Sequence record: PP680568.1
Length of the DNA stretch: 64,000 nt
Strand: one strand, 5' to 3'
Source of the DNA: Enterococcus phage VRE9_2
A program made the translations under genes and the position numbers. Numbering within the stretch: position 1 is the first letter of the stretch; each line of letters starts with the position of its first letter. Under the pieces are notes generated by a model. It was not told where the DNA came from. It did not search any database and saw only the letters and a list, made by a program, of their open reading frames with translations. Below, piece after piece: positions 40,702 to 57,135 of the stretch.

Positions 40702-40732
40702 AAAAAAGGCTGAGGAAAACTCAGTCTTTTTT
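40702..40732. terminator. Bidirectional rho-independent terminator.
   Basis: Stem ggctgag/ctcagtc (one G-U pair), A-run on the left and TTTTTT on the right. Confidence 0.55.
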
Positions 40733-40740
40733 AATAGAAA

Positions 40741-40995
40741 TTATTCTTCAACTTTTTCGTCAATCTCTTTTTCTTCAATTGTTGCAGGAGATTGCAGTTG
40801 TTGAATAGCTTCAAGCAATTGTTTGTTTGCAGCTTCTGATTTAGCCAATACAACTTCTTGTCTTGCTATTTCACCCATTGCTTGAGTAAGCAATTCTTGT
40901 GTTCCAATTAATTGTTGTCGAGCAACAGCTAATTCAAATTCTGCTTGTTCTAATAGCTGTTCAACTGTTGGATGTTGGTCTGTTTTATTTTCCAT
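40741..40995 (-). CDS. Hypothetical coiled-coil protein (84 aa).
   Basis: Gln/Glu/Leu/Ala-rich heptad-like sequence. Confidence 0.4.
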   Translation of the reverse strand: MENKTDQHPTVEQLLEQAEFELAVARQQLIGTQELLTQAMGEIARQEVVLAKSEAANKQLLEAIQQLQSPATIEEKEIDEKVEE

Positions 40996-41444
40996 TATTG
41001 TGTTACCTCCACTGATGTTTTTCCATCTTCTGAAACAACAAAATGTCGAACTTTATTAGTCATATCTCCAGTACGATTTGCTCTAATACGTTCATACATA
41101 GCTGTTTTACGATCGATAAATGCTTGGATTTCATTTTGTAATTCAGACCTCATTTGTTCTAAGGTCTCAAATGTTTCAAGATCCATTTTGATATCTCCTA
41201 AGTTATTTAGAATATCAATATAAGAACGTAATAAAGCAATACGAGTCCCCACTTTTTCTGTCGCCATATCTAAATCATCTGGATGAGTCTGACTAACTCC
41301 GGTACCCTTAACTATCTTACCATTGGTTAGTTCTGCTGTAGTAATAACAGTCACCTTAGATACGATATTGATACCATCTACTTCTGTAAATTCTGGAAAA
41401 GAATCAGATGTTATAATTCGTTCTAATACATTTTTAACTTCCAC
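40995..41444 (-). CDS. Hypothetical protein (149 aa).
   Basis: ORF with consensus promoter upstream. RBS AAGGAGG. Confidence 0.45.
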   Translation of the reverse strand: MEVKNVLERIITSDSFPEFTEVDGINIVSKVTVITTAELTNGKIVKGTGVSQTHPDDLDMATEKVGTRIALLRSYIDILNNLGDIKMDLETFETLEQMRSELQNEIQAFIDRKTAMYERIRANRTGDMTNKVRHFVVSEDGKTSVEVTQ

Positions 41445-41476
41445 TAAAATTTCCTCCTTATTTAACTTTATAATTA

Positions 41477-41505
41477 ATTATATCATCCTTAATAAAAAAA
41501 GTCAA
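41477..41505 (-). promoter_or_regulatory. Consensus early promoter TTGACT-17-TGaTATAAT, leftward.
   Basis: - strand: TTGACT ttttttattaaggatga TATAAT. Confidence 0.6.
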
Positions 41506-41672
41506 TAATTATCTCGCCAAACACCCTTTATTTTTTTTCGTGCTTTTTGTCTAGTTAATGGATACCATTGTTCACTTTTAGCTTTTTTTAAAATTTGAGC
41601 TTCAATTGGAATCCATCTACCATCACTATCTTTTCTATATATTAACATATTACTCTCTCCCTGTCAAGTAAA

Positions 41673-42974
41673 TTAAATTTTAATCCAAATATCTCCTTCT
41701 CTACCTGCCTTACCTGGATCAGTAACACTAAAGAAAATTCTAACCCCTTTAAATGATATATATGATTGTTCAGAAGATAATGCAGTATCTGTTAATAGTT
41801 CGCCGTCACTCATTCTTAGATAATGATAATATCCGCTTTCTGTTGGTTGTCCACTACCAGCATAATTTCTAGGGAATAAAATAGCTGCATCACGACTACT
41901 AGAGTAATTTCTAAATACAAGCTGTCCAATACCATTCATTGCTCCACCATTTATATCAATAGCTGGTTTACGATTTAAATTACCTACATAAGTCAAATTA
42001 GGCTCAGAAATTTTTAACGCTGGCATACCTAAATATCGTTTAGTATCTCCAATCGTCATTTGACCTGCAGGAACATGAATTCGTCCAAAATTCAATGTTA
42101 AAGAACCACCAGTATTTCCATCAACACCACCAAAAATAATATCATTTAATTCTGTTCCACCATTACCACTTGTCGCTATAATTAACGAATCTGTTGGGCT
42201 TGTCGGAAATTGGAAATCTAATCTTCCAAAACTATTCCTAATACTTAATGGAAGTCCTGAGCCATCTGTGTCTAATACAAGACTTCCTGTCATGGTTTGA
42301 TTTATAGTTTTATCTAAATAATTTTCATGTTTATGATTTGCTGGAGCTAAATTTGTGTGAGTATGGTCGATAGGTGAATATTTTGCTTTCATTGTTTCTA
42401 ATAAAGTTTTACCAGCAGATGCTGCTAATGCTCTATCAGAAGCTGAACTATCTAATGTAGAAACTAATTCATCTTTACGGACATATTGACTGAAATCAAT
42501 TCCACCTTCACTTGGGGATGCACCAGTCACTTCATAAGGAACAAAAGTACTACCATTCCAACCAAGTAATGTATTAACTTTTAGATTTTCTCCTAGTGTA
42601 ACATCTTTAAGTTCTCCAATAGAAGAGTTGGTTGATAATACTGGTGCTCCTCCTACTCGTAATGCTCCAGTAAAATTGTTCCAATCTCCTTCCCACATAT
42701 TGTTTCCACCCTTAAGAGCTATTAAGGCTGCTTCAATACCTTGATCTTGAACAATCTTTGTAATCTCTGGAATCAAATCAGAAAAATCTGATACTGTATG
42801 TTTGTGACCTTTTTGAGAAACCTCATTCCATGATTCATTATTTTGTCCTGTGGCTACCCAAATAGCTCTAGGATTTGAACCTGTATCAATATAAGTTTGT
42901 CCATAATATTCAGCACTAATGGTTGGTTTACCTGTGCCGTATAGCATATTTCCTCTAGTAATATGAATTGACAT
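41673..42974 (-). CDS. Tail-fiber-like protein with HxH repeats, encoded in the early region (433 aa).
   Basis: Contains KGHKHTVSDFSDL and HTHTNLAPANHKHENYLDK, which resemble phage tail-fibre repeat/collar HxH motifs. Gly/Asn/Thr-rich beta-type composition. Confidence 0.4.
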   Translation of the reverse strand: MSIHITRGNMLYGTGKPTISAEYYGQTYIDTGSNPRAIWVATGQNNESWNEVSQKGHKHTVSDFSDLIPEITKIVQDQGIEAALIALKGGNNMWEGDWNNFTGALRVGGAPVLSTNSSIGELKDVTLGENLKVNTLLGWNGSTFVPYEVTGASPSEGGIDFSQYVRKDELVSTLDSSASDRALAASAGKTLLETMKAKYSPIDHTHTNLAPANHKHENYLDKTINQTMTGSLVLDTDGSGLPLSIRNSFGRLDFQFPTSPTDSLIIATSGNGGTELNDIIFGGVDGNTGGSLTLNFGRIHVPAGQMTIGDTKRYLGMPALKISEPNLTYVGNLNRKPAIDINGGAMNGIGQLVFRNYSSSRDAAILFPRNYAGSGQPTESGYYHYLRMSDGELLTDTALSSEQSYISFKGVRIFFSVTDPGKAGREGDIWIKI

Positions 42975-43032
42975 TTATTTGTCCTCCTTTATAATCTTTC
43001 TCTTATGTATATTAAAAAGCTTTTAAACCTAA

Positions 43033-43066
43033 TATAAAAAAAGAACCCTAAAAGATTAAAGGGTTC
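43033..43066 (-). terminator. Rho-independent terminator (leftward).
   Basis: Stem gaaccct/agggttc followed by ttttttt on the - strand. Confidence 0.55.
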
Positions 43067-43550
43067 AAAAACTTTCTGATGTTTTTAGAAAAATAATACC
43101 ATTGGAAATAAATTTTTGTCCCCAATAAGTATCTTCTATTTCTTTATACTCATCTTGATTTACAGGAATTGGCAATGTACTTCTTACAATAGTTTGCTGT
43201 TTCATAATCTCTTTTTTTAAACGTTCCCTTTTTGTATATTTGGTTACCATATAAGGCAATATAAATATAGCAGGAAAAACTAAAAGCATTGAAAGCAAAA
43301 TTACAAGAAAAGAACGGAAAGTAAAAATAGAAGCTACTCTATCTTCTTGCTCCCACCGTTTGGCTGGAAGTATAATTGATTGTTCAGTAAAATTCCAGCG
43401 TTCAATTAATAAATCTCTTTTTTCAATTGCATTCCGAGCTTTTTCTAACTCTATTTGATGCCGAACCAAAACTCTACTATTAAATAGCTCCACTTTTAAC
43501 CCTCCTAACCAATCAGGAATCCTGTGTTTTTCTATAAAATTCTTTAACAT
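43065..43550 (-). CDS. Hypothetical membrane protein (161 aa).
   Basis: Central hydrophobic segment FLVILLSMLLVFPAIFILPYMV. Confidence 0.45.
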   Translation of the reverse strand: MLKNFIEKHRIPDWLGGLKVELFNSRVLVRHQIELEKARNAIEKRDLLIERWNFTEQSIILPAKRWEQEDRVASIFTFRSFLVILLSMLLVFPAIFILPYMVTKYTKRERLKKEIMKQQTIVRSTLPIPVNQDEYKEIEDTYWGQKFISNGIIFLKTSESF

Positions 43551-43588
43551 GCGAAAAACAAGCTCGTCCTCCTTATCTATCTGGTTTT

Positions 43589-44209
43589 TTAAAACAATTT
43601 AATTTGGTGTGAAGAACCTTTCACATAATTTACTATTAACATAGCTAATTTACCAGGATCTACGTAAATAGAATTTAACCTATTATAAATGAAATTTATT
43701 TCGGTTAGATTTGAATCTTTTGGCTCGTTTACTAGAAGATTATAATTTTCTGACAAGTGGTATCCTAATCCAGGAATATTTTTAATAAAGATTGAAGTAC
43801 CATCATAAATATAATCAAAATATTTACTAGCAATTTTATCAAACCATAATACATCCTTCTCTGCTAATAAATACATATCTGGGTCTTCTAACAATTCCAT
43901 CAAAAAAATAATAGAATCCTTCGCCACCTTATTCCCTGCTTCTCTTGGGACAATATTGCCATATATGCTATAAAAGACTAGATATAAATCTTCTTTAGTT
44001 TTTATAGAACAAGCTTCGTTATCTTTTGCAATATGCTCTATTGTATTATAGTTTATAAATGAATTTAGGATAGGTCCAATAGGTTTATCAGACACAAAAA
44101 ATCTAATATCCTCCATTGAACGATTTTCTAAATATTGATTAAAATATTCTGTATAGACCAAAGGCCCGCTACCAAAGATAGCAGGCTGTCCAGTAAAATC
44201 TAACATCAT
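43589..44209 (-). CDS. Hypothetical protein (206 aa).
   Basis: ORF in an operon. Confidence 0.45.
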   Translation of the reverse strand: MMLDFTGQPAIFGSGPLVYTEYFNQYLENRSMEDIRFFVSDKPIGPILNSFINYNTIEHIAKDNEACSIKTKEDLYLVFYSIYGNIVPREAGNKVAKDSIIFLMELLEDPDMYLLAEKDVLWFDKIASKYFDYIYDGTSIFIKNIPGLGYHLSENYNLLVNEPKDSNLTEINFIYNRLNSIYVDPGKLAMLIVNYVKGSSHQIKLF

Positions 44210-44508
44210 AAAATTCCATCTCCTTCAGATTCCACATAGGCTTTAATAGCTGAATAGAATTCTGATGGTGCTTCAAAACCAGCATAATTTGCTACAACCA
44301 AACATTGTTGTACATAATCAATAAATCTATCAAAAATCTCTGGATTATCCTTGAAATATTCATCAGTATCCTTTTCCATAGTAAAAGCAAGCTTTGCTTC
44401 GCCCTCTTCTTCTAAATATTGGATACCAACTTTTTCATCAACAATTAATTCAAAGAAAAATTTCTCATATTGTATATTGTCCAATTTTATCACTCCAATT
44501 TCCTTCAT
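44206..44508 (-). CDS. Hypothetical acidic protein (100 aa).
   Basis: ORF overlapping its neighbours. Confidence 0.45.
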   Translation of the reverse strand: MKEIGVIKLDNIQYEKFFFELIVDEKVGIQYLEEEGEAKLAFTMEKDTDEYFKDNPEIFDRFIDYVQQCLVVANYAGFEAPSEFYSAIKAYVESEGDGIL

Positions 44509-45484
44509 AGGTTTTTAATTCACAATCTCCACATATAGGCATATCAGAAAAAGCATTTGTTTTATTACAAGATAAACATTTTACAACAGATCCATATTTT
44601 AATATTTCAGATTCTTTTGGCTCTCCTATATATAAATTCTCTCTTTTTGATTTTATACCTAAAGTAAAATCATTATATACTTGACTTAAATTTGTTTTAT
44701 AAGTTTTTATATTATCGTCATGAACTGAAATAAAATTCTCTCCAAGAGAAGAGAAGAAAGTATTTTGTAAAGTATTTATTGTAAATTCTTCAATTCCGTT
44801 ATTTTTATAGGGATACTGCGTAGATAACATTGCTCCTTTATAATCTTTTGAGAAAACTCCCAAGCGTCTATAAATTTTTTTATCTACGTATTCAACATCA
44901 TTAAAATTGGGTTTCTCTGTCATTACATAAGTTAAAAATGTATAATTATCTAAACCTGCAGAATATCCTCCAGTATAATGCTCTCCCATAGGTTTATAAC
45001 ATGTAGTCCATCCTCTACCAACCCCCATCATTATAAAATCATAAGGATGAACAGATATAACCAAATAACTGGATGGGAGAATATATGAATTTTTTATTTG
45101 AGAATACATTAATACAATTTCTTCTCCCAATTCTGGAGTTTGATTAATAACCTTAGATAATTTTTTGCCAGAAGAATGTTTATTCTCTATTAAATCTGAA
45201 TCATTTAATAGTCCTGCTAATTTAAAGAAGCCAGCATCTATTTTTCTGGTTTCTTTATATCGTTCCTTAAATTCTTTTTTAAAATCTCTTTCTGCTTGTG
45301 TTTTTATAGCTTTTATATTATCTATTTTAAAAACTAATCTTAGATTATTATCCATCATAGCAATTATTTCTTTTTTCTTTTCAGCAACTTGACTGAAAAA
45401 ATTTTCATAATTATTATACGAAAAGAGACTAACCCCTTGAGAGAGGTTAATCTTTTCGTACTGACTTTTCATATTTTCTGTCAA
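44465..45484 (-). CDS. Member 1 (339 aa) of an uncharacterised three-gene paralogous family. Has a C-terminal zinc ribbon.
   Basis: Shares the S-x-x-P-x-D-hhhMS...W-[ST]-[ST]-C...Y..G...K-[IV]-W-R-R-hG-hF...YP...NN core with the ORFs at 46592-47791 and 48957-50828. Ends with CLSCN...CGDC. Confidence 0.5.
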   Translation of the reverse strand: MTENMKSQYEKINLSQGVSLFSYNNYENFFSQVAEKKKEIIAMMDNNLRLVFKIDNIKAIKTQAERDFKKEFKERYKETRKIDAGFFKLAGLLNDSDLIENKHSSGKKLSKVINQTPELGEEIVLMYSQIKNSYILPSSYLVISVHPYDFIMMGVGRGWTTCYKPMGEHYTGGYSAGLDNYTFLTYVMTEKPNFNDVEYVDKKIYRRLGVFSKDYKGAMLSTQYPYKNNGIEEFTINTLQNTFFSSLGENFISVHDDNIKTYKTNLSQVYNDFTLGIKSKRENLYIGEPKESEILKYGSVVKCLSCNKTNAFSDMPICGDCELKTYEGNWSDKIGQYTI

Positions 45485-45496
45485 ATTTCCACCATC

Positions 45497-46570
45497 TTAC
45501 TTTCCGTCATTATTTATAGTTTCAGTATAACGTTCTTTTTGTGATACATCTTCTAAGTATTTTTCTCGACACTCATCGCATAAATGCGACAATACTTCAT
45601 TGTCTGTATCAGACCAAGAAACTGTCCCTTTATCTAAAAAGCAAAATTCGCATTGTTCAACTTCTTTTTTTTTATTGCGACTTTTATAGGGGATAAAACT
45701 CGTTTCATCATCGTCATAATTTAGATAATCCGATTCATCATAAACGTCTTCATCTCCCCAGTAACAATAAGAACCATTTTGATAATAATTAGAATATCCA
45801 TAGTTACCATATCCAGCATAAGAATCTTCTTTATACTCATAAAATTTAGGATTTTGATATTGGTCTTCTAAAATTTCCTTTACTTTTCTCTGGGTCTTAT
45901 ACATTTCGTTAATATAAATGCGTTCATAACATGTGTGTTCATCCATATAGCCTGCCGATAAATTTACTCCTGCGAAACCAAATTCAGGACAAACTTGACA
46001 AATGTCTGTATAAGATCCATTGTGAGTTTTAAAACCAAAACTATTAATATATTCTTCAAAATCTGTGTTATCTAAATAATAATAGACAGATTCTCCGAAA
46101 CCTTTTCGATCCAATTGAATAGCGAAATTAATCTCTGTTAAAGCTGTTTGTACATCTTCTCCAAAGTAATTTTCTACATTTTTTGTGAAGAAACTAGATC
46201 CAATAGTTCCAATTTCCTCATCCCAACAAAATAATACATGAGGACGATAGCCTTGTGTCAACATATCTAAAATGCTAAAAACTCCACAACGATCATCTCC
46301 ACCAATACCATCAGGACACCATAAAACATTTTTTTCTTTATCGTGGAAAATAGTTTCCTCTGTTGGAGCTACTGTATGGACTGTATCCAAATGAGCCAAC
46401 ATAAGAACAGGAATATCTCCTTTAGCATAAATAAAACTACCATCAACACGATAAATATCTCTAGAATCATACATTGATTCTATTTGACCTAATAAATAAA
46501 AATGAAGCCCCTCTTGTGTCATTTGTAAAATGTTTTTAAAGGTTTGTAAACCTAATTCTTTCTTTTGCAT
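45497..46570 (-). CDS. M28-family zinc metallopeptidase-like protein with a C-terminal Cys4 zinc ribbon (357 aa).
   Basis: Motifs HLDTVH, DGIGGDDRCGV (D-G-x-G-x-D-D-x-x-G), EEIGTIGS (EE-x-G-x-x-GS) and YMDEH. C-terminal CEFC...CDEC. Confidence 0.45.
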   Translation of the reverse strand: MQKKELGLQTFKNILQMTQEGLHFYLLGQIESMYDSRDIYRVDGSFIYAKGDIPVLMLAHLDTVHTVAPTEETIFHDKEKNVLWCPDGIGGDDRCGVFSILDMLTQGYRPHVLFCWDEEIGTIGSSFFTKNVENYFGEDVQTALTEINFAIQLDRKGFGESVYYYLDNTDFEEYINSFGFKTHNGSYTDICQVCPEFGFAGVNLSAGYMDEHTCYERIYINEMYKTQRKVKEILEDQYQNPKFYEYKEDSYAGYGNYGYSNYYQNGSYCYWGDEDVYDESDYLNYDDDETSFIPYKSRNKKKEVEQCEFCFLDKGTVSWSDTDNEVLSHLCDECREKYLEDVSQKERYTETINNDGK

Positions 46571-46591
46571 TTTATAAAATTCCCCCTTTTT

Positions 46592-47791
46592 TTAATAATC
46601 CCAATCATCTTCGTCGTCCCAATATTCATCTTCATCATAATAAGCGTCTTCATCAAAAAGACCTCCAACTTCAATCGATCCATCAATAAAGAAATCACAA
46701 GTTGGGCTTATAACTGAATCAACACCTACTTCAAAACGAACATTGCATAATTCAGTTTCATCAGTTTCATCATAAAAATCTTTATTGAAATGTTTTCTTA
46801 AGATATTTTCAGAATTATTTTCTCCTTCAACATTGTATTTTTGTTTATCTAAAATAATCATTGGAACTTTATTCATAGTCCCATGTGTAATATCATTATA
46901 GTGAATTTCACTACTTTCTCTAATAGTATTTTCTGCATCAGAAGAATCAATAAATCCATAAGCAACATTATCTTCTCCAAAAGTATCTACAAATAATTTG
47001 CGTAAAGCTTTAGTATTATTTTTATTAACGCTTGGATATGAACGAGACAAATAAATAGCATCTAACTCTGTATTAAACATACCCATTCTACGCCAAATTT
47101 TATCTGGAATACTGTCTTGACTACCTAAAATAATTTGACAAATAAAACTTGAACCATCTAATAAATAAGAAACTGGTCCAGCACCATAACAACCATCAAT
47201 AATAGAATGACAAGAAGACCATTCTCTGGTTTTGTTTACAGACATCATTAAAATATCAAGAGGATCAATAGAAACTTCTAAAACTCCTCGAGCTAATAAT
47301 GATTCATTAAATGCTGACAAATAAATTTGTATTTGGTTAACTAGTTTTTTATTTTTTAGAACACGCTTAAGAGACTTAGAAATTTTTGCTCCAGCTTGAA
47401 ATGATTCGCCTAAAATTTCTTTATTTGTCATAAAACGGTTTTTTTGTAATTCTTCTAAAGAAAAACTACTAAAATAAAGTGCTATAATTTTTCCTTCATT
47501 TTCTTCCATGGTCATAGACTTAATTTTAGATAAAAATGAAGAATGAAAAGCATCTTTAATCTCTGAATTTGATAATGCGTTTTCAACGCTTCCTTCTAAT
47601 CTTAATTTATTCCCAAACTTCTGAAAAATAGGAAATTTTGCTTGAGCCCAATCTCTTGCCCATGCTCGTCTAGTATCTGTATCGAAACCACCATTGATGC
47701 TATATAAAATATTATCAATTTCTTCCCAAGATTTTTTCATCATTGGTTCCATCAAATTTAATTTTTCTTCGATAGTATATGTTTTTTCCAT
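46592..47791 (-). CDS. Member 2 (399 aa) of the uncharacterised paralogous family. Has a highly acidic C-terminal tail.
   Basis: Contains the shared core LEVSIDPLDILMMSV...WSSC...KIWRRMGMF...SYP...KNN. Ends YYDEDEYWDDEDDWDY. Confidence 0.5.
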   Translation of the reverse strand: MEKTYTIEEKLNLMEPMMKKSWEEIDNILYSINGGFDTDTRRAWARDWAQAKFPIFQKFGNKLRLEGSVENALSNSEIKDAFHSSFLSKIKSMTMEENEGKIIALYFSSFSLEELQKNRFMTNKEILGESFQAGAKISKSLKRVLKNKKLVNQIQIYLSAFNESLLARGVLEVSIDPLDILMMSVNKTREWSSCHSIIDGCYGAGPVSYLLDGSSFICQIILGSQDSIPDKIWRRMGMFNTELDAIYLSRSYPSVNKNNTKALRKLFVDTFGEDNVAYGFIDSSDAENTIRESSEIHYNDITHGTMNKVPMIILDKQKYNVEGENNSENILRKHFNKDFYDETDETELCNVRFEVGVDSVISPTCDFFIDGSIEVGGLFDEDAYYDEDEYWDDEDDWDY

Positions 47792-47818
47792 TGCAAAATC
47801 TCCCTTTTTTTTATTTTA

Positions 47819-48061
47819 TTATTGTAAATTAAAATTTACTCCTTGTTTTGTTAAAAAATATTTTCGAGGAGTATCAGCAGTTTTGTCTACTAGTCCTTTT
47901 TTGTTTAATGAAGTTAATACACCTGGAACACCATTAGGCATCATAAATGCTAATTCTGCCACACGTTTCGAAAATACTGCATCTTCTTCTTTATCAATAT
48001 GAGCTTCTTGTAAAGCTTTTAAAACTTGCATACCTTTTTCTGTTAATTTAATTTCTTCCAT
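47819..48061 (-). CDS. Small putative winged-helix DNA-binding protein (80 aa).
   Basis: Helix-rich N-terminus followed by GVPGVLTSLNKKGLV...YFLTKQG, which resembles a wHTH wing. Confidence 0.35.
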   Translation of the reverse strand: MEEIKLTEKGMQVLKALQEAHIDKEEDAVFSKRVAELAFMMPNGVPGVLTSLNKKGLVDKTADTPRKYFLTKQGVNFNLQ

Positions 48062-48195
48062 TTAAAATCCGCTCCTATTTTTTATTATCAATTCATTTTC
48101 TATAATATAATTATAACAAATTGAACTAACTTTTTCAAATTGTGTGTTTACATAAGCTATCTGACTTTTTGTTTCTTTCATTTAACTTATAATTA

Positions 48196-48224
48196 ATTAT
48201 ATCATTTAATATATAAAAACTCAA
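48196..48224 (-). promoter_or_regulatory. Early promoter TTGAGT-17-TGaTATAAT, leftward.
   Basis: - strand: TTGAGT ttttatatattaaatga TATAAT. Confidence 0.5.
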
Positions 48225-48225
48225 A

Positions 48226-48256
48226 TAAAAAATCCCAATCATCTAGATTGGGATTA
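48226..48256 (-). terminator. Rho-independent terminator (leftward) after the collagen-like gene.
   Basis: 10-bp inverted repeat aatcccaatc/gattgggatt followed by a T-run on the - strand. Confidence 0.55.
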
Positions 48257-48268
48257 ATTTTAAATAAT

Positions 48269-48583
48269 TTATGCTCCAGCTTGACTAACTGTAATTTCAA
48301 TTGTAGATTGATCAGAAAGAGTAGCTGTTCCTCCAGTTACTTTACCAGATTCGTCTGTTGTTAAGGCAATAGCCGTAATAGATTTTCCATCTGTACCATT
48401 TGCCCCAGCAGCTCCTTTTGCACCGGCATCCCCCTTGTCTCCTTTAGGTCCGGCAGGTCCAGTCTCACCTGGATCTCCTTTAGGTCCTTTTTGTTCTTGT
48501 AAGAAATCTACTAAAGAAGCAAATGATTCTTGTGTCATAGTTTTACCAGTTGCAAATAATGCTTTAATTTGTTCTGCGTTCAT
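48269..48583 (-). CDS. Collagen-like Gly-X-Y repeat protein (104 aa).
   Basis: GPKGDPGETGPAGPKGDKGDAGAKGAAGANGTDGKS gives about 12 uninterrupted GXY triplets. Confidence 0.5.
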   Translation of the reverse strand: MNAEQIKALFATGKTMTQESFASLVDFLQEQKGPKGDPGETGPAGPKGDKGDAGAKGAAGANGTDGKSITAIALTTDESGKVTGGTATLSDQSTIEITVSQAGA

Positions 48584-48644
48584 TTTGTTTCCTCCTATTT
48601 TTAAATATATTTGAGAACTTATCTCTTTTTATTATGAAAAAGTC

Positions 48645-48860
48645 TTATTCTGCTTTTCCAACTTTTGCCTTACCTACTATAGCTTTTCCTACAATAGATT
48701 CTTCACCTAATTCTTCTTCTTTTTTATAAGCAATAGCTTTATCCGTAGGACAAATCATATAATAGAAATCTTCCGTTTTGTTTTTACGATAATTAATAAC
48801 CATATAATTTTCTTCATATTCTCGTCCACAATGAGAACATACATAAATATCTTTTTTCAT
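48645..48860 (-). CDS. Small zinc-ribbon protein with a C-terminal IVGKAIVGKAKVGKA repeat (71 aa). Paralog of the ORF at 32602-32853.
   Basis: CSHCG...CPTDK zinc ribbon plus a tandem VGKA repeat at the C-terminus. Confidence 0.5.
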   Translation of the reverse strand: MKKDIYVCSHCGREYEENYMVINYRKNKTEDFYYMICPTDKAIAYKKEEELGEESIVGKAIVGKAKVGKAE

Positions 48861-48924
48861 TCTCTTTCCTCCTTTTGGTAATCGCTAATACTATTAAAAA
48901 GACCTAATTTGAAACAATAAAATA

Positions 48925-48948
48925 AAGCCCTATTTTATAATAGGGCTT
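48925..48948 (-). terminator. Putative terminator (leftward) after the 623-aa gene.
   Basis: 9-bp inverted repeat aagccctat/atagggctt, with a T-rich tract following on the - strand. Confidence 0.4.
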
Positions 48949-48956
48949 AAATCTTA

Positions 48957-50828
48957 TTATTCTTTTACTTCGCCAGTTAATAAGAAGTCAATGAATTCTT
49001 TATTAATAGGACTGTCTCCAGTCAAACGGAATTCAAAAGAACTATCTTCAAGAGGCTCCCATGAAAAACCTAAAGAATCTAAAATAATTTTAGTTTTTAA
49101 TTGAAATTCTTCTTCTCGATTTTCACATTTGAAAATATAATCCTTTAGAATTTCAAAACAATCTTTTTTAGATGTACCTAATTCTTGATACTTTTTGAAA
49201 ATTTTATTCATTTTCCAAGCTTCATCAAGAATGTTTGGTAGTTCCTGAGAAAAGATTTCTTTCCATTCATCAGAATCAATATCTTCTGTATTTTCATGAT
49301 ATTTTCCGTCAACTTTCCAAATAAAGCAATCATGGATACAAGCAGTTACTCCATTTGATAATTCTACAACATCTTCTTGAAGCATATAACTATCAAGAGT
49401 TTCGCACCATGCAGCATCAGAAGTTAAGAGATATTCTTCTAAATGATCTGAGTAAGTAGCATCTTTTGTATAAACCCAAGAATCTTCTTTGGAGCCAATC
49501 GCATGAACTGCTTCTTCTCCCCAAATATTTTCTCCTTCTTTGGTAGACCAAATGGTTTCTTCTCCACAGCATTCACAAACATAGACAATATCTCCAAAAG
49601 TATCTAATACTCGAACACCATAATCTTCATCAAAACGTTCTTCACAAGATGGACAAATTGATCTTGAACCATAGTAACATTCTTCACAAAGCCCTGAACA
49701 ATTTGCAGGATCATCTTTAGAACCACATTCGAGACAAACAAAGGCGCTTTGTGCATTAATTGGGATAGTTTTGCCTTCTTCCGCCTGAAAAAGAACAGGA
49801 GATCGTAAACCTCGAATTGCATCATTCCAGTTGAAAGCATCTACATAACCATATTCATTACAATCTGAACCATTTCTCCAACGAAAACGAGTTAAATTTT
49901 CTTCAATTTGGTTAATTTTCGCATTACCTTCCCAACCCAATAAAGATAAGGTTGCATTACTAATCATATTTTGTAATCCATTATTCAAACGGGGATATCC
50001 TTTTTGAGATAAAAGAACTGGAACAGTTTCTTCTTCATAGTCAACTTCAGAAACGAACATCATTTGACGCCATACTTTTGGAGCTAAATAACCAAACTCT
50101 TCTAAATCTTTTTCCATTACAGTAAAACCAACAAAAGCATCTGGTCCAACCATGTAACCTAGTGTACCATTATTATATTCACCTTCGTCAGGGTGCATAC
50201 ATGAACGCCAGCTATTTCCATAACTAATTAAGAATAAATCTTCTGGTCTGATAGATAGAACAATTTTTCGTCCATCAAAATTTGCCCCTGATGCAAAACT
50301 AGCCATTTCTCCACCAACAATTTTATTTTTAATGTCAGAAACCGCTTCTTTTAATTTCCTAGTTGAAGAAACGTTTTGAGCAGACAATACTGACATATCA
50401 ACTAAAGAGTTTAAAACTTTAGTTAAACGTTGTCCATGGAAAGGTAACATTTTGAATTCATCTTTCATAATTACCTTTTTATTTTCAACTCTGATTTTGT
50501 CAAAAGTATTATAAACTGATGTTTTAAAAACGTCAATGAAATTATAAGAAATATCCAAGTCACGTAAATCAGAATATAATCCATCATCTACATAATTTTT
50601 CATTTCTTCAAATGAAAATTCTTCCATGAAATCTTTGAAATCTTTAGGATCTAAGACAATCCTTCCATTTGTTCCATCAAAGATTTTTTGTAGGTAAGAG
50701 TTTTTCATTTCCATTCCTTTTGCATAATAATCTAAATATTGTGAGTCTGATAATGAGCCCCACTCATAAAATTCATTAAAGATTTCTTTTAAATTTGCTT
50801 TAACCTCTTCAACGCTATAATTTAACAT
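48957..50828 (-). CDS. Member 3 (623 aa) of the uncharacterised paralogous family, with a C-terminal multi-Cys (zinc-binding) domain.
   Basis: Shared core LSIRPEDLFLIS...WRSC...KVWRQMMF...GYP...NNG. Downstream cluster CLECG...CSGLCEEC...CPSCEE...CECCG. Confidence 0.5.
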   Translation of the reverse strand: MLNYSVEEVKANLKEIFNEFYEWGSLSDSQYLDYYAKGMEMKNSYLQKIFDGTNGRIVLDPKDFKDFMEEFSFEEMKNYVDDGLYSDLRDLDISYNFIDVFKTSVYNTFDKIRVENKKVIMKDEFKMLPFHGQRLTKVLNSLVDMSVLSAQNVSSTRKLKEAVSDIKNKIVGGEMASFASGANFDGRKIVLSIRPEDLFLISYGNSWRSCMHPDEGEYNNGTLGYMVGPDAFVGFTVMEKDLEEFGYLAPKVWRQMMFVSEVDYEEETVPVLLSQKGYPRLNNGLQNMISNATLSLLGWEGNAKINQIEENLTRFRWRNGSDCNEYGYVDAFNWNDAIRGLRSPVLFQAEEGKTIPINAQSAFVCLECGSKDDPANCSGLCEECYYGSRSICPSCEERFDEDYGVRVLDTFGDIVYVCECCGEETIWSTKEGENIWGEEAVHAIGSKEDSWVYTKDATYSDHLEEYLLTSDAAWCETLDSYMLQEDVVELSNGVTACIHDCFIWKVDGKYHENTEDIDSDEWKEIFSQELPNILDEAWKMNKIFKKYQELGTSKKDCFEILKDYIFKCENREEEFQLKTKIILDSLGFSWEPLEDSSFEFRLTGDSPINKEFIDFLLTGEVKE

Positions 50829-51131: not shown

Positions 51132-51160
51132 TTGACTTTTTTATGTTCAATATATATAAT
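51132..51160 (+). promoter_or_regulatory. Consensus sigma-A promoter TTGACT-17-TATAAT, rightward.
   Basis: TTGACT at 51132-51137 and TATAAT at 51155-51160 with an exact 17-nt spacer. Confidence 0.6.
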
Positions 51161-51198
51161 TAATATAGAGTTTTGAGTAATTCTCAGAGTAAAAATTC

Positions 51199-51227
51199 TT
51201 GACTTTTTGATTATTATATGTTATAAT
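51199..51227 (+). promoter_or_regulatory. Second tandem consensus promoter TTGACT-17-TGtTATAAT, rightward.
   Basis: TTGACT at 51199-51204 and TATAAT at 51222-51227 preceded by TGt. 50 nt upstream of the gene at 51278. Confidence 0.6.
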
Positions 51228-51730: not shown

Positions 51731-53771
51731 ATGTTAAATGTAATGAAAAAAGATGGTCATATTGAAATTTTTGACACGAAGAAAATTCAGGAGGCAATTT
51801 TAGCTTCTGCAAGGAAAATTCTTTCTAATGAAGAAGAATATGATATGCAGCAAAAAGCTTTAATTATTGCGAATGAGGTAGCTCGTTTCTTAAATTCAAC
51901 TGAAGATGAAAATGCAGTTATTATGACATCTAAAATTCATAATGTTGTTCTGGAGATTCTATCCAAAGAATGGGAAGTCGTTGGAGCTTCTTATGGAATG
52001 TATAGAAACTATAGAAAACAAATGGCTAAAACATTTTTAAAAAGTTATGAGGAATCTGAAACTGTACTCCACGATGGAGATAAAGAAAATGCTAATAAAG
52101 ATAGTGATTTGAATAGTACAAAACAAGCTTTAATTGCAAATAATAATATGCGTGGTTATATGGAAACATTTGAAATGGATAAAGATTGGATTGAAGCTCA
52201 TAAACAAGGTTGGATACACATTCATGATTTAGCAGAGCGTTATTTGCGCCAGCAAAATTGTTGTTTGTTTAACATGGCAGGTTTATTAGATGGTGGGTTC
52301 CAATTAAATGGAACAGTTTATGCAGAGCCTAAACATTTTGATTCTGCTATTAATGTAGTAGGAGATGTTACTTTGTTTGCATCTGCACAGCAATATGGCG
52401 GTTTTACTATTCCTGAAATAGATACTGTTTTAGCTAAATACGCTGAAAAAAGTTATCAATCAAATTTAAAATTTATTTTAGATAAATTTGGAGATATTAC
52501 TAATGAAGATATTATGGAAACACTAGAACAAACAGCTTACGACATGACTGTTAGAGAGCTAGAACAAGGCTTTCAAGGCTTTGAAACAAAATTAAATACA
52601 ATTAGTAATTCTTTAGGACAAATTCCTTTTGTAACAATTACTTTTGGTTTGGATACAACTCAATGGGGAAGAGAAATTTCTAAAGCTATTTTGAATGTAC
52701 GGATTAAAGGGATTGGAGAAAATAAATCAACAGCGGTATTTCCTAAATTATCTTTTTTACATAGAAAGGAAATTAATGGAAATCCAGAATCTCCTAATTA
52801 TGATATTAAACAATTAGGGATTCAATGTTCTCGATTAAGATTATATCCTGATTGGCTGTCCCTAGATAGTGGAAATCTTGCAGAAGTATATGAAAGATCT
52901 AATCAAGTTGTATCTGGGATGGGATGTCGAGCATATTTAAGTCCATTTTGGGACGAGCAAGGAAATGAAATTTACACTGGACGATCTAATATTGGAGCCG
53001 TTACATTGAACCTTCCTAAAATTGGTTTAGAATCAAAAGGGGATTGGAATAAATTTTTTGATCTAGTAGATAAATATTCTGATATTGTTTTTGCTATTCA
53101 TGAAGATTATTATACTAAAATTAGTAAAACAAAAGGTTCTTCTAACCCTCTATATTTCTGTGAAGGTGGAGCTTGGACAAAAGTAGGCTATGATGAAGAA
53201 GTTGGGAAGATATATGAAGCTTCAACTGCTTCATTGGGATATATTGGAATTTATGAAACATTAAAAGCAATGAATGTTTCAAAAGAAGAATATCTTAAAT
53301 ATGGGACTAAAATTGTTGCATATTTGAAAAAATTAACAGAAAAAGCTACAATTAATTATAATCATTTATATGCACTTTATTCAACCCCAGCAGAAAGTTT
53401 ATGCTATAGATTCCAGAAAATTAATCGTAAATATTATGGAGTAATTGAAGATGTAACTGATAGAGAGTACATTACAAATTCTTTCCATGTTCCAGTATGG
53501 GAAGATGTTAGCGTTCCTGAAAAAATTGCTTTTGAAGCACCATTCCATAAACTTGCAACAGGTGGGCGAATTTCTTATAATGAATTTGTTTATGGAGTAG
53601 ATAATTCTGTGCTAGAACAAGCAATTAACTTTGCTATGGAAAATGGAATGTATTATGGAGTTAATGTTGTTGCAGGAACTTGTAATCAATGTGGTTATAG
53701 TGGAGATTTCCATGACAATTGTCCTAAATGTGGTACCCATGATATTACAGTAGTAACGAGAGTTTGTGGGT
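51731..53771 (+). CDS. nrdD: Anaerobic ribonucleoside-triphosphate reductase NrdD, exon 1. Ends inside the glycyl-radical motif RVCG|.
   Basis: N-terminal ATP-cone MKKDGHIEIFDTKKIQEAI. Class III RNR core. C-terminal zinc ribbon CNQCG...CPKCG. The continuous reading frame terminates 8 codons after RVCG, where the intron begins. Confidence 0.8.
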
Positions 53772-54797
53772 TAACTATAAAAAGTTCTCTTTAAAAAACT
53801 TAAAGGCTCACGTAAAACAGGATAAATTGCGGGAACATCCTAAAGTTCTTAACTACTAAGCAAATATAGTGATATATTTGTGGCTGAACTAATCACTCAG
53901 GTATAGTAAAAAGGTTAAGAAATTGGACAATCCGCAGCGATACCTCTCATTAGAGAGAGACGTTCAACGACTATAAACCTGCTCTGGCTTAATTTTAAGC
54001 TAAATGTATAGTCTAGTCCGAGATAATATGTAGTATAATAGGAGTTGTTACAGTATAGATTTTTATGTATACATTCATTATACTAAAGATACAAAAGAAA
54101 TATTTTATGTAGGTAAGGGTATAAATAACAGAGCTTATTCAAAAGTTAAACGAAATAAGTTTTGGTGGAATATTGTTAATAAGCATGATTATTGCTTAAA
54201 AATTTTATATTCAAATTTATCAGAAGAAAAGGCTTTCCTTTTAGAGAAGGAATTAATTAAAAATCTAAAAGCTATTGGATTAGCAAAAGCAAACTTCCAT
54301 GAAGGAGGTTCAGGAGGAAATACAATGAAATACGCCCCTCTTGGAGAAATCCAAAAGTGGAAAGAAAGTTTATGCTCCGCTCAACAAAATTTAGATTTAG
54401 AAACTAGACAAAGATTAAGTCAAATTCGTAGTCTAAATGTAAGCGGAGATAAAAATCCTCAATTTAATAAGCCTGGATTTAATACAGGTCGCAAATTTTC
54501 TGATGAACATAAAAATAAAATTAGCAATGCTTTAAAACAATATTCTATGACAGAAGAACACAAACAAAATATAACAAAATCACACAACAAATATCTATTA
54601 AAGGTTATTACAGATAATGGAGAAGAAATGATTTTTAGTTCTCTAAAGGAAGCTTCTGAAACACTAGGAGTTCCTAAGACTACATTATCTAGTTGTGGAC
54701 ATGGAAATAATGGCAGAAACAAAACCCATTATTCTTCCAAATATAAACTTACTGCATATTATCTAACATAAGTATCCCGAAAGGGACGGTAGATTCG
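53772..54797 (+). mobile_element. Group I self-splicing intron (IA2-like core) interrupting nrdD, with an embedded GIY-YIG homing endonuclease gene.
   Basis: Conserved core elements: P AAUUGCGGGAA (53825-53835), Q AAUCCGCAGC (53929-53938), R GUUCAACGACUAUAAAC (53962-53978) and S AUGUAUAGUCUAGUCCG (54004-54020). The R/S halves gacuau/auaguc are complementary and would form P7. The internal guide sequence GGCTCAC (53806-53812) pairs with exon end GTGGGT, and the exon ends in U. Terminal G at 54797. Confidence 0.8.
54034..54771 (+). CDS. Intron-encoded GIY-YIG homing endonuclease (I-TevI-like, with NUMOD3-type repeats and a C-terminal HTH). No canonical start codon lies upstream of the catalytic motif.
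   Basis: Open frame from 54034. GIY-YIG core VYIHYTKDTKEIFYVGKG...R...E. Repeats GDKNPQFNKPGFNTGRKFSDEHKNKISNALK. C-terminal LKEASETLGVPKTTL. First in-frame ATG is at 54325, downstream of the GIY-YIG motif. AGGAG at 54040-54044. An out-of-frame ATG sits at 54065. Confidence 0.6.
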   Translation, partial: YNRSCYSIDFYVYIHYTKDTKEIFYVGKGINNRAYSKVKRNKFWWNIVNKHDYCLKILYSNLSEEKAFLLEKELIKNLKAIGLAKANFHEGGSGGNTMKYAPLGEIQKWKESLCSAQQNLDLETRQRLSQIRSLNVSGDKNPQFNKPGFNTGRKFSDEHKNKISNALKQYSMTEEHKQNITKSHNKYLLKVITDNGEEMIFSSLKEASETLGVPKTTLSSCGHGNNGRNKTHYSSKYKLTAYYLT

Positions 54798-54889
54798 ATT
54801 TATCCTTTGATCAGATTCATGGTGACTCACGTTATAATCCTGGTAAACAAAAAGAAGTTAAAGAAAGAGTTAAACATAATTTCAAATAA
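54798..54889 (+). CDS. nrdD: NrdD exon 2, encoding the C-terminal 30 residues (Y)LSFDQIHGDSRYNPGKQKEVKERVKHNFK.
   Basis: In frame after splicing (t|at = Tyr). Matches the conserved NrdD C-terminus (RVCGYL...N.GK..E...RVKH). Confidence 0.65.
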
Positions 54890-54901
54890 AAGGAGAAATA
54901 T

Positions 54902-55195
54902 ATGAAAGAAAAGGAACAAGAGGTTATTGAAAAGTTATATGCTTATGTATCAGAAATGGATATTGTTTTAGCAGAAAAGAAACTACAAACAATTTCTTTA
55001 ATACTTTTTATTCTTATGGGAGGATATTGTTTAATCTTTTCTTGCCCTGTATTTATTAATATTGTTTCTTTATCCGGCTTAGCTTATTTTGCTTTTACTT
55101 TATTGGCAAATTTAATGCTTGAACAACTTTTGGATAAAGAAATTTCAAAAAATGAAGTTTTATTAGAACAAATTCTTAAAAATAAAGAGAAATAG
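54902..55195 (+). CDS. Hypothetical membrane protein (97 aa).
   Basis: RBS aaaggag. Two hydrophobic helices. Confidence 0.45.
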   Translation: MKEKEQEVIEKLYAYVSEMDIVLAEKKLQTISLILFILMGGYCLIFSCPVFINIVSLSGLAYFAFTLLANLMLEQLLDKEISKNEVLLEQILKNKEK

Positions 55196-55216
55196 AAAGA
55201 AAGGAAGTTTTTTAAA

Positions 55217-55381
55217 ATGATGTTTATTGCAGTTTTTTGTGGGATTTGTATCCTATTATTAATTGGTTCTGGAATGAAAGCAAATATAGGAAGAGATACT
55301 ACGAGATTAGAGAATATGGCTTACTTAATGTTTGCCATATTCTTAATTTTGTTTATCCTAATTTTAATTGGGGGAGCATAA
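55217..55381 (+). CDS. Small hypothetical membrane protein (54 aa), not in the ORF track.
   Basis: RBS AAGGAAG at 9-nt spacing. Two hydrophobic helices (IAVFCGICILLLIGSG and LMFAIFLILFILILIGG). Confidence 0.4.
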   Translation: MMFIAVFCGICILLLIGSGMKANIGRDTTRLENMAYLMFAIFLILFILILIGGA

Positions 55382-55382
55382 T

Positions 55383-55904
55383 ATGGCTTATTTACACAAT
55401 ATAAAAAAATATGATATGGAAAACAGTGGTTTAAAAGGAGCCTCAGTTTCTTTATGGTTTAATCATTGTCCACATCATTGCCCAGGATGCTGGAATTCAG
55501 AAACTTGGGAAAGAAATGAAAACTTATATGAGGATAACCAAGAGGTAATAGAAGAGGTGCTCGATGGTCTTGATGGAGGACCAATGAAATTAAATACTCT
55601 TGCTCTTTTGGGAGGAGACCCTCTCAGTCCTAAAAATATAAAAGATACATTAGAAATTTTATCGGCAGTTAAAACAAAAAGACCAGAGACAGAGGTTATC
55701 TGTTGGACTGGTTTTACTTGGGAACAAGTAACTAAAAGTAAGTTACTTAAACCAGTATTAGAATATTTAGATGTATTAATTGATGGTCGTTTTATGATAG
55801 ACCGTAGAATCGAAGGTAAAAAATATGGTTCTGACAATCAAAGATGTATTGATGTGAAAAAATCTCTTCAATGTGATAAAATATATTTAATGGAGGGATT
55901 TTAA
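55383..55904 (+). CDS. nrdG: Anaerobic RNR activating enzyme NrdG (radical SAM).
   Basis: CPHHCPGC (C-x3-C-x2-C) cluster. Preferred start is the ATG at 55383 with RBS GGGGGAG, rather than the TTG at 55368. Confidence 0.7.
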   Translation: MAYLHNIKKYDMENSGLKGASVSLWFNHCPHHCPGCWNSETWERNENLYEDNQEVIEEVLDGLDGGPMKLNTLALLGGDPLSPKNIKDTLEILSAVKTKRPETEVICWTGFTWEQVTKSKLLKPVLEYLDVLIDGRFMIDRRIEGKKYGSDNQRCIDVKKSLQCDKIYLMEGF

Positions 55905-56212
55905 TGTTTGGTCTTAATAAAAAAACAGAAAAAAATTCTGTGAAAAAGTATCGTAAAAAACCTGTTGAAGTAGAAGTATGGCTTTTTAATAGAGAAAATT
56001 TGGAAACAGCAGAAAGTTGGGTACGCAAGTATTCAGATAAAATGGTTTTATTTTCTCAATATGGTGGAGAAAAAATTTGGATAGAAATAAAAACTTTAGA
56101 AGGTGTAATGAAAGCTTCTGAAGGAGACTATATTATAAAAGGAATCAATGGAGAATTATATCCTTGTAAACCAGATATTTTTCTCAAAACTTATGAAGAG
56201 GTGACAAATTAA
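55904..56212 (+). CDS. Hypothetical protein (102 aa).
   Basis: Start overlaps the nrdG stop (TAATG). Confidence 0.45.
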   Translation: MFGLNKKTEKNSVKKYRKKPVEVEVWLFNRENLETAESWVRKYSDKMVLFSQYGGEKIWIEIKTLEGVMKASEGDYIIKGINGELYPCKPDIFLKTYEEVTN

Positions 56213-57135
56213 TGTATGAAACAATAGTTATAGGTGGCGGACCAGGAGCGATGTCTGCCATTCTTTATTTATCTCGACTTGGTTTAAAAACTGCATGGAT
56301 CTATGGTTATGGTTTTGGAGGACAAATTCAAAATACAGAAGTTGTAGATAATTATCTTGGGAAGGGAAAAATTTATGCCCCAATCTTAGTAAAAGATATG
56401 TACTCTCATGTAGAAGATCTAGAACATGTTACACAAATTTTTGGTATGGCTGAAAATGTTAATAAAATTGATGATTCAACTTTTATAGTAACTACTGATA
56501 CGGGAGAAAAAATTAGTGGTAATACTGTATTAGTTGCAACTGGAGCTTCTCCTAGAAAACTTGGAGTTAAAGGAGAAGAAGATTTTGCTGGTTTTGGCGT
56601 CTCTTATTGCGCTATTTGTGATGCTCCTTTATTTAAAGATAAAGAAGTAGCAATTGTTGGTGGTGGACAAACTGCTTTAGAAGATGCACAAATCCTATCT
56701 CGTCATGCAAAAAAAGTATATTTAATTCATAGACGACAAGAATTTAGAGCAACAAATGCCGAAGTAAAACAAGCAAAAAATACTTCAAATATCCATTTTC
56801 TCTTGGATACACAAGTTACTTCTATCATGGGAGAAGACAAAGTTGATTTTATTGTTATTAATGAAAAGGGAATTGGTCATAGAACTTTATCAGTGGATGG
56901 TATTTTTATAGCTGTAGGACAAGTTCCGCAAACTGATTTTTTAATTGAAAATTTTAATTATATTTTACGAGATGGTTATGTAGAAACGATGAGAAACAAT
57001 AAGGTAGAAGATTTAGGCATCTTTGCCATTGGAGATGTAGTTTATGGGAATAATAAACAAATTGCTATTGCTGTAGGAGAAGGTGCAAATGCCGCAATAG
57101 AAATTAATAAATATTTATCAGATCCTAATTTTTGA
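56212..57135 (+). CDS. trxB: Thioredoxin reductase (FAD/NAD(P)-dependent pyridine nucleotide-disulfide oxidoreductase).
   Basis: FAD motif IVIGGGPGAM. Redox-active CAICDA. Second Rossmann motif VAIVGGGQTA. 307 aa. Confidence 0.75.
   Translation: MYETIVIGGGPGAMSAILYLSRLGLKTAWIYGYGFGGQIQNTEVVDNYLGKGKIYAPILVKDMYSHVEDLEHVTQIFGMAENVNKIDDSTFIVTTDTGEKISGNTVLVATGASPRKLGVKGEEDFAGFGVSYCAICDAPLFKDKEVAIVGGGQTALEDAQILSRHAKKVYLIHRRQEFRATNAEVKQAKNTSNIHFLLDTQVTSIMGEDKVDFIVINEKGIGHRTLSVDGIFIAVGQVPQTDFLIENFNYILRDGYVETMRNNKVEDLGIFAIGDVVYGNNKQIAIAVGEGANAAIEINKYLSDPNF

Follow-up and report, generated by a model that had tools for sequence, protein, structure and literature searches.

Introduction

The gene nrdD, which encodes the anaerobic class III ribonucleotide reductase (RNR), is frequently split in bacteriophages (PMC3653736, PMC12880540, PMC2988022). 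One described case is the nrdD (sunY) intron of phage T4, a group I intron that begins with UAAC and has its ribozyme core 5' of an open reading frame (ORF) for the homing endonuclease I-TevII, the ORF lying in the P9 region (PMC2988022). An element of comparable layout is present in Enterococcus phage VRE9_2 (sequence record PP680568.1), at positions 53772-54797 of the 64,000-nt stretch of DNA analyzed here, which is referred to below as the window. We put the probability at about 0.9 that this element is a group I intron inserted in nrdD at RVCG680/Y681 (the slash marks the insertion point, here and in other sequences broken at a junction) and bearing in the loop of P9 a gene for a homing endonuclease of the GIY-YIG/NUMOD3 type.

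The T4 nrdD intron also encodes a GIY-YIG endonuclease, and it measures 1033 nt against 1026 nt in VRE9_2. The internal guide sequences of the two introns differ at a single base (GCUCAU in T4, GCUCAC in VRE9_2), and their exon ends read UAUGAGU/AU and UGUGGGU/AU, respectively. The T4 intron, however, follows nt 538 of the coding sequence (CDS) (GCTTATGAGT/ATGAAG; AYE/YE, codon 180), whereas that of VRE9_2 follows nt 2041; by eye, the T4 intron has P7.1/P7.2 and no P5abc-type extension, and the VRE9_2 intron shows the reverse. A BLASTP comparison of I-TevII with the VRE9_2 endonuclease returns only a 25-residue NUMOD3-like stretch and no significant similarity, and I-TevII has an AUG start whereas the VRE9_2 enzyme has no canonical start.

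The T4 td intron, which encodes I-TevI, is likewise a group I intron in a gene of nucleotide metabolism. Its ORF is located in P6, whereas that of VRE9_2 is in P9. I-TevI and the VRE9_2 enzyme share a layout of N-terminal GIY-YIG domain, linker, and C-terminal DNA-binding module with a helix-turn-helix (HTH), and the expression of I-TevI in T4 td is restricted (PMC2988022); a comparable restriction in the VRE9_2 intron would come from a non-AUG start. The catalytic domain of I-TevI has no detectable similarity to the VRE9_2 endonuclease, which also contains no Cys-x-x-Cys pairs, unlike the zinc-finger linker of I-TevI. An earlier note on this DNA, made from the letters alone, had called the endonuclease 'I-TevI-like'; the description suits the domain layout but not the sequence, which has neither significant similarity to I-TevI or I-TevII nor zinc-finger cysteines.

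Among the closest relatives of VRE9_2, phages EF1 and EF5 also carry an intron in nrdD (1036 nt, annotated 'HNH homing endonuclease' and 'Phage intron'), which differs in lying after about nt 1655-1659 of the CDS and in encoding an HNH rather than a GIY-YIG enzyme. In EF1 (MF001358.1) this insertion, at about 3086-4121, corresponds to window position 53385-53390 or thereabouts. VRE9_2 is without the HNH intron and EF1 and EF5 are without the intron described here, so that nrdD holds alternative introns in sister phages. VRE9_2 had been taken by the earlier note for an SPbeta-like phage; it is instead an Enterococcus phage of approximately 134-142 kb, an unclassified member of the Caudoviricetes, about 95% identical to EF1, EF5, H1, VRE9_3 and VRE9_4. 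Introns in conserved motifs of RNR genes are known from phages of Firmicutes, in bnrdE/bnrdF of SPbeta and nrdE of Twort (PMC3653736). These introns, and the terL introns described below, differ from that of VRE9_2 in residing in other genes (class Ib RNR, terminase) with other endonucleases, and none lies at the nrdD glycyl-radical motif.

Results

Insertion site and boundaries

The nrdD frame of VRE9_2 reads ...DITVVTRVCG up to the junction, ending in R677 V678 C679 G680, where G680 is the glycyl-radical glycine of NrdD. The intron lies between the first and second bases of the following codon, one base after that of the radical glycine, and the locus is divided as follows.

51731-53771, plus strand: nrdD exon 1, codons 1-680 and the first base of Tyr681, defined from the ORF list, the sequence and collinearity with the intron-less nrdD of VRE9_3
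53772-54797, plus strand: group I intron, 1026 nt, starting UAAC... after U53771 and ending in the omega-G, G54797; missing from VRE9_3, H1 and VRE9_4
53792-53794, plus strand: in-frame TAA terminating unspliced nrdD translation after seven intron codons (LTIKSSL)
54798-54889, plus strand: nrdD exon 2, bases 2-3 of Tyr681 and then LSFDQIHGDSRYNPGKQKEVKERVKHNFK, with the stop at 54887-54889

These boundaries were defined by comparison with intron-less alleles. A megablast search of 53300-55000 against 50,697 phage records returned five relatives only, all Enterococcus phages with 97-98% identity, and in three of them (VRE9_3, H1 and VRE9_4) nothing separates the two flanks. When 51731-53771 and 54798-54889 are joined, the result is a 2133-nt ORF equal in length to nrdD of VRE9_3, to which it is identical at 2057/2133 nt and at 701/710 amino acids plus the stop; the protein encoded by exon 2 is 100% conserved relative to the intron-less relatives. 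At the junction VRE9_2 has GTG GGT/AT TTA TCC where the intron-less alleles have GTG GGA or GGG followed by TAT CTT TCC, and the 2133-nt frame is restored by no other U...G boundary pair. The 710-residue spliced NrdD covers positions 1-581 of the 581 in the TIGR02487 equivalog model, across the junction and including RVCGY, with 499.5 bits against a cut-off of 326 bits. Because the flanks are contiguous in the intron-less alleles and exact excision restores a 710-residue NrdD, the intron comprises 53772-54797. The predicted ligated junction is ...GUGGGU/AUUUAUCC, or in wider form ...GTTTGTGGGT/ATTTATCC, and the uninterrupted site of VRE9_3 reads ...AGAGTTTGTGGATATCTTTCCTTTGATC....

Most of what the earlier note had claimed for this region is borne out: a group I intron one base after the codon of the glycyl-radical glycine (on which the intron-less alleles, the Rfam core, covariation and the NrdD profile agree), the remaining NrdD C-terminus, (Y)LSFDQIHGDSRYNPGKQKEVKERVKHNFK, in the same frame downstream from 54798/54800, an intervening length of 1026 bp with a terminal G at 54797, and re-creation of RVCG-Y on excision. 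Its count of the stop as eight codons past RVCG needs a qualification, since the stop is itself the eighth codon and is preceded by seven intron codons. Downstream of nrdD, nrdG and the rest of the operon are intact. Occupancy of the glycyl site is rare among sequenced phages, as the NrdD C-terminus is uninterrupted in the region of this site in 2885 of 2923 phage records that contain it.

Fold of the ribozyme

A focused scan of 53650-54950 with the Rfam model RF00028 (Intron_gpI; gathering score 50 bits) gave a match at 53754-54022 of 45.9 bits (E 3.4e-10). The alignment places P4/P5, P6 and P3, as well as R (GUUCAACGACUAUAA) and S (AUAGUC), and assigns a 73-nt insertion to P5. Together with the analyses described below it leads to the following structure.

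53766-53771, plus strand: 5' strand of P1, the six bases GUGGGU that end exon 1; the U.G wobble at U53771 defines the 5' splice site
53806-53811, plus strand: internal guide sequence GCUCAC, the 3' strand of P1; G53806 pairs with U53771
53818-54013, plus strand: ribozyme core, based on the Rfam alignment, RNAalifold prediction and pair counts
53818-53821 with 53978-53981, plus strand: P3
53828-53833 with 53931-53936, plus strand: P4
53838-53840 with 53925-53927, plus strand: P5
53846-53853 with 53914-53921, plus strand: P5a
53860-53881, plus strand: P5b, with a GUGA loop
53884-53900, plus strand: P5c
53944-53957, plus strand: P6
53969-53974 with 54008-54013, plus strand: P7, invariant in the alignment
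53987-54000, plus strand: P8
54021-54035, plus strand: 5' strand of P9, AGAUAAUAUGUAGUA, complementary at 14 of 15 positions to 54750-54764 and containing ATG-TAG
54750-54764, plus strand: 3' strand of P9, made of the last codons of the endonuclease ORF
54775-54786, plus strand: P9.1-type hairpin, UCCC-GAAA-GGGA, capped by a GNRA tetraloop and ending 11 nt short of the 3' splice site

Since the P9 helix closes the loop that contains the endonuclease ORF, the ORF is an insertion in the P9 loop (L9). By eye the intron lacks P2 as well as P7.1/P7.2, while an extension of the P5abc type, with a GNRA loop, is present.

Because the Rfam match is below threshold, independent support was sought by aligning seven distinct copies from this nrdD site with MAFFT, after the ORF had been cut out of the two long ones. 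Unaided, RNAalifold predicted P1, P4, P5, P5a, P6, P7 and the GAAA-capped P9.1 from this alignment, with 15 compensatory pairs. A fuller model adding the P3/P7 pseudoknot, P5b and P5c was compared with controls in which the pairing partners were slid by 1-3 columns: 94.6% of cells were paired (33-44% in the controls), double-sided changes occurred at 28 of 56 pairs (4-8 in the controls), and the observed covariation values were matched by 0 of 500 shuffles. Covariation is seen in P3, P4, P5, P5a, P5b, P6 and P9.1; all 4/4 pairs of the last covary among homologues (UCCC/GGGA, CUAG/CUAG, UUGG/CCAA, UCAG/CUGA and UCGG/CCGA). The P1 pairing, in which the earlier note had correctly matched the guide sequence to the exon end GTGGGU, is invariant in the seven homologues, in all of which the helix is predicted by RNAalifold. 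A candidate P10 joins UAAA (53801-53804) to UUUA of the 3' exon (54799-54802), and it too covaries between the exon and the guide-adjacent bases, being UUUA/UAAA in VRE9_2 and UAUA/UAUA in the clostridial introns.

Two further complementarities were observed. Exon bases GAGAGUUU (53758-53765) can pair over 8 bp with intron bases AAAGUUCUC (53781-53789), just before the in-frame stop; this helix, the one aligned by Rfam as 'P1', is a topological competitor of the true P1 and is kept in L029, a contig with an intron about 82% identical to that of VRE9_2. It shows no covariation; by analogy with what is described for T4 introns, it could couple splicing to translation. Exon 2 opens with nine bases, AUUUAUCCU (54798-54806), that are fully complementary to AGGAUAAAU (53819-53827, in P3/J3-4). 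This match may be due to chance, because only 5 of its 9 positions are retained in L029 and the AT-rich surroundings contain several other perfect inverted repeats of 9-10 nt.

Related introns at the same site and elsewhere

Introns at the same site were sought with a degenerate pattern for the 5' junction and guide sequence. The pattern found in nrdD consists of an R[VT]CG end, UAAC, a short loop and GGCUCACGU. In bacterial genomes the scan gave at least 120 loci; about 115 of the matches listed are due to chance and at least 5 are nrdD introns. ORF-less introns of 236-293 nt are present at this site in Enterocloster phage CB457P1, in several IMG/VR contigs and in five bacterial assemblies (Clostridium cuniculi, a Clostridium metagenome-assembled genome (MAG), a C. 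perfringens MAG, a Clostridiaceae bacterium isolate and Sarcina ventriculi, among loci L070, L084, L116, L119 and L145), and their removal restores typical NrdD ends, for example YIGTNFWNKGRTAEIGDRVLHL. In CB457P1 (OP172753.1) the intron (3496-3788, 293 nt) is unannotated, and nrdD is annotated as a truncated ORF of 713 residues ending in ...RTCGLTL. The 3' splice site of this intron was at first set by similarity to 'GAUAGAUUCG', an assignment that was dropped in favor of the 293-nt intron, which restores YIGTHYWNYGRTEEIRDRFVHL.

The introns of CB457P1, Clostridium and Sarcina resemble that of VRE9_2 in having the identical R[VT]CG/Y 5' junction, P1/guide pairing and UAAC start and a homologous P3-P9.1 core; over the P3-P5 region the CB457P1 intron has 76% nucleotide identity to VRE9_2. 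They differ in having a short P1 loop, where VRE9_2 has an extra insertion of about 24 nt, and in having a small hairpin as P9, which in VRE9_2 is a 14-bp helix closing a 714-nt loop. The same RVCG/Y site is also used by a structurally different intron of 625 nt, which follows ...SRVCG on the minus strand of the IMG/VR contig IMGVR_UViG_3300045988_021168 (L019). By eye the 3' part of this intron is close to T4 sunY (GAUAGUCUGAACUGCAU..AUGCAG), and an ORF with HNH-type motifs, as read from the sequence, follows P7. At least two intron/endonuclease combinations therefore use the glycyl site.

The nearest relatives of the core in named phages are the terL introns of Bacillus Nitunavirus (Grass-like) phages, with 75-76% identity to P3-P5abc. 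In Grass (NC_022771.1) the annotation gives the terminase large subunit as two CDSs with a gap of about 386 nt between them (2486-2871). As this gap holds a core 75% identical to P3-P5abc, we take it to contain an unannotated ORF-less group I intron; the match is seen again in about 20 related Bacillus phages.

The suggestion of the earlier note that the insertion site may be undescribed holds for the literature searched, which yielded no account of an intron in nrdD at the glycyl-radical motif; this does not prove the site new, and RNRdb reports more than 100 curated RNR introns (PMC2795772). It does not hold for sequences, in which the site is occupied, without annotation, in CB457P1, IMG/VR contigs and Clostridium and Sarcina.

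The endonuclease reading frame and its proposed start

54055-54771, plus strand: homing-endonuclease ORF, 238 codons and stop; the frame is open from 54034
54040-54057, plus strand: Shine-Dalgarno sequence AGGAG (54040-54044), a 10-nt spacer and ATA (54055-54057), the proposed start

The earlier note had placed a GIY-YIG ORF in the 3' half of the intron; matches to endonuclease families support the identification, but the frame (54034/54055-54771) fills about 70% of the intron. The product has a GIY-YIG domain at its N-terminus, then NUMOD3 repeats, and at its C-terminus a NUMOD/HTH module of the I-HmuI type. The ORF contains the motifs FYVYIHY...IFYVGKG...R...E...N, the catalytic domain being read as YVY...FYVGKG, and among 30 homologues the columns of Y6, Y18, R26, E64 and N80 are invariant or at least 90% conserved. 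In Pfam, NUMOD3 scores above its cut-off and the I-HmuI_NUMOD-like family just under it (26.7 against 27); there is a match to PHROG_314 'homing endonuclease' at 9e-17. A profile of the 30 sequences searched against the Protein Data Bank (PDB) matched the GIY-YIG structure 9u75 (1.3e-4), I-HmuI (1u3e, 0.015) and the DNA-binding domain of I-TevI (1i3j, E 0.2). The cleavage activity and target of the enzyme are predictions from sequence. The copy in L029 is 77% identical and has no indel or stop across the 238 codons; with a dN/dS of 0.27 (dS 0.63), the ORF is under purifying selection, which argues that the protein is made.

Between the TAG at 54031 and position 54325 the frame contains no ATG, GTG or TTG, so that the first canonical start is Met91, and the ATG at 54028-54030 is directly followed by an in-frame TAG (54031-54033). 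ATG-TAG and ATA are both kept in all six available variants, including L029, and the bases flanking ATA vary in L029 and L153; the starts of homologues fall 0-1 codon from the position of the ATA. From this conservation, and from the spacing to AGGAG, we lean slightly toward initiation at the AUA (54055). Two homologous proteins predicted from short Logan contigs (P0001 and P0002, loci L028-L030) start further upstream and have Gln where the DNA has TAG, and this Gln is therefore an artefact of gene calling with a TAG=Gln code, which hides the missing start. Read-through of the TAG by a phage suppressor tRNA was considered and set aside, the 64-kb window containing no tRNA gene, as was a hairpin over the ribosome-binding site and start (54031-54086) of the kind found in T4, the fold being no stabler than that of shuffled sequence (z -0.28). 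No sigma-70-type promoter was found upstream of the ORF, strong promoter-like sites occurring only at 51132-51227, ahead of the operon.

Mobility of the intron

The intron is shared with an IMG/VR contig (L004) representing a phage 94.7% identical to VRE9_2 over 11 kb. The two introns differ at 2/1026 nt (99.8% identity). The upstream flank differs at 32/790 nt, divergence being about 4% up to 19 nt from the insertion site, and the downstream flank (54798-56797) differs at 51/2000 nt, divided into 9/1000 (0.9%) in the first kb and 42/1000 (4.2%) in the next (Fisher p about 7e-10 for intron against flanks). The near-identity of introns between flanks some 3-4% apart indicates recent lateral transfer, and the asymmetry of the flanks possibly reflects a one-sided, downstream co-conversion tract.

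Other ribonucleotide reductase genes of the window

The annotation of EF1 and EF5 divides the alpha subunit of the class Ia RNR into three pieces, with two HNH endonucleases; the EF5 stretch matching 30000-50000 of the window is about 2.7 kb longer. The VRE9_2 copy of this gene therefore appears to be without these insertions. An ORF of 307 residues at 56212-57135 resembles by sequence a flavoprotein of the thioredoxin-reductase type and is so annotated in EF1; the label 'ribonucleotide reductase large subunit' given to its VRE9_3 homologue is a likely misannotation.

Discussion

Several observations weigh against a functional, endonuclease-bearing group I intron at 53772-54797. The RF00028 score falls slightly short of the gathering score, a qualification to the earlier note's claim of canonical group I core elements; whole-window Rfam scans, at gathering threshold and by E-value alike, reported nothing. 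The Rfam alignment stops at 54022 and takes another exon-intron helix as 'P1'. P3 of the VRE9_2 intron is one column off relative to the clostridial copies and has only four clean pairs, and the alignment-based covariation test excludes P8, P9.0 and P10. The best Pfam match of the GIY-YIG domain, to PF22945 (LEM-3_GIY-YIG), is sub-threshold (E 0.014, 15.8 bits, cut-off 27). With no canonical start, and a TAG after the nearest ATG in all variants, the protein may be poorly made or not made. Splicing, finally, is a prediction from sequence. The shortfall in the Rfam score fits three features of this intron, namely the 73 nt inserted in P5, the P1 loop enlarged by an insertion and the presence of the ORF in P9. 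Since the intron was recovered by the focused scan only, the whole-window result is uninformative about other introns.

If the intron is functional, splicing and homing would proceed as follows. In the pre-mRNA P1 would arise from pairing of the exon end GUGGGU with the guide GCUCAC; guanosine would be bound by the P3-P8 core, which would direct cleavage after U53771, and the exons would be joined after the omega-G at 54797, with the assistance of P10, to give full-length NrdD. On unspliced RNA, ribosomes would halt at the TAA seven codons into the intron. The endonuclease would presumably cut intron-less nrdD alleles of co-infecting phages, repair then copying the intron in. Its translation probably starts at the weak, non-canonical AUA 10 nt past the strong AGGAG, which would hold expression low.

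A more elaborate version of this reading, which we advance tentatively, is that the VRE9_2 intron represents the endonuclease-bearing, mobile form of an undescribed family of introns at the nrdD glycyl codon, distributed over clostridial chromosomes and phages of Enterococcus and Enterocloster, in which an AUA start behind the AUG-UAG 'start-stop' of P9 would throttle a toxic enzyme. More speculative still is the idea that the lineage moved between two nrdD sites by reverse splicing, as the one-base difference from the T4 nrdD guide sequence and the similar exon targets might suggest.

Of the competing explanations, the one that survives best, although we think it somewhat unlikely, grants a functional ribozyme and regards the endonuclease as a recently silenced relic, a nonsense TAG at 54031 having separated the frame from its ancestral ATG at 54028; the intron would persist and spread only by ordinary recombination or through an endonuclease supplied in trans. 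In favor of such a relic, the ATG-TAG lies directly upstream in the same frame, there is no canonical in-frame start and no suppressor tRNA in the window, and the Gln of P0001 and P0002 comes from TAG read as Gln in gene calling. The TAG is, however, common to two lineages separated by a dS of 0.63, between which the ORF has acquired no indel or stop at a dN/dS of 0.27, and selection on the protein thus outlasted the appearance of the TAG. The strong AGGAG, 10 nt ahead of an ATA that is kept between variable flanks, also speaks against silencing, and the near-identity of the intron across diverged phages suggests recent active transfer.

It is very improbable that the insertion is decayed and non-splicing, and nrdD a pseudogene yielding a C-terminally truncated protein without the radical. 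This explanation draws on the sub-threshold Rfam score, on splicing being a prediction, and on phage annotations, such as that of CB457P1, that call a truncated ORF. Every core helix is nonetheless intact and covarying, and the U.G pair, omega-G and P10 are present; exon 2 is in frame with its protein fully conserved, and the downstream nrdG is intact; and the intron is kept in several independent phage genomes, with ORF-less versions in chromosomal nrdD of clostridia. The least credible alternative, a gene in pieces from insertion of a free-standing endonuclease or an intein, in which two polypeptides or protein splicing would replace RNA splicing, has precedents in phage RNR genes, some of which are interrupted by inteins and others by free-standing endonucleases, as in Aeh1 nrdA/mobE (PMC3653736, PMC2988022). 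The intervening sequence of VRE9_2, however, reaches a stop after 7 codons and so is no in-frame ORF, which excludes an intein. Exon 2, coding for only 30 residues, lacks its own start codon and ribosome-binding site; the endonuclease ORF is preceded by a group I core of 250 nt; and homologues without an ORF, 236-293 nt long, are found at this site.

We conclude that the VRE9_2 intron is genuine and, within a well-known class of phage selfish elements, fairly ordinary; it leaves the understanding of group I introns unchanged. It rises slightly above the routine in lying right next to the codon of the radical glycine, a position also occupied in clostridial chromosomes, and in the conserved, probably non-AUG start. 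For annotation the consequences are practical: gene callers truncate nrdD at RVCGLTIKSSL, as they do at the corresponding point in CB457P1, and either overlook the endonuclease or recover it by translating TAG as Gln, whereas once the intron is recognized, VRE9_2 and several Clostridium genomes regain a functional class III RNR. The near-identity of the intron documents ongoing homing among Enterococcus phages that are candidates for therapy, and the conserved lack of a canonical start offers a system in which limitation of a homing endonuclease by non-AUG initiation can be tested. Lying one base from the codon of the enzyme's most indispensable residue, the intron is a clear case of selfish elements aiming at immutable sequence.

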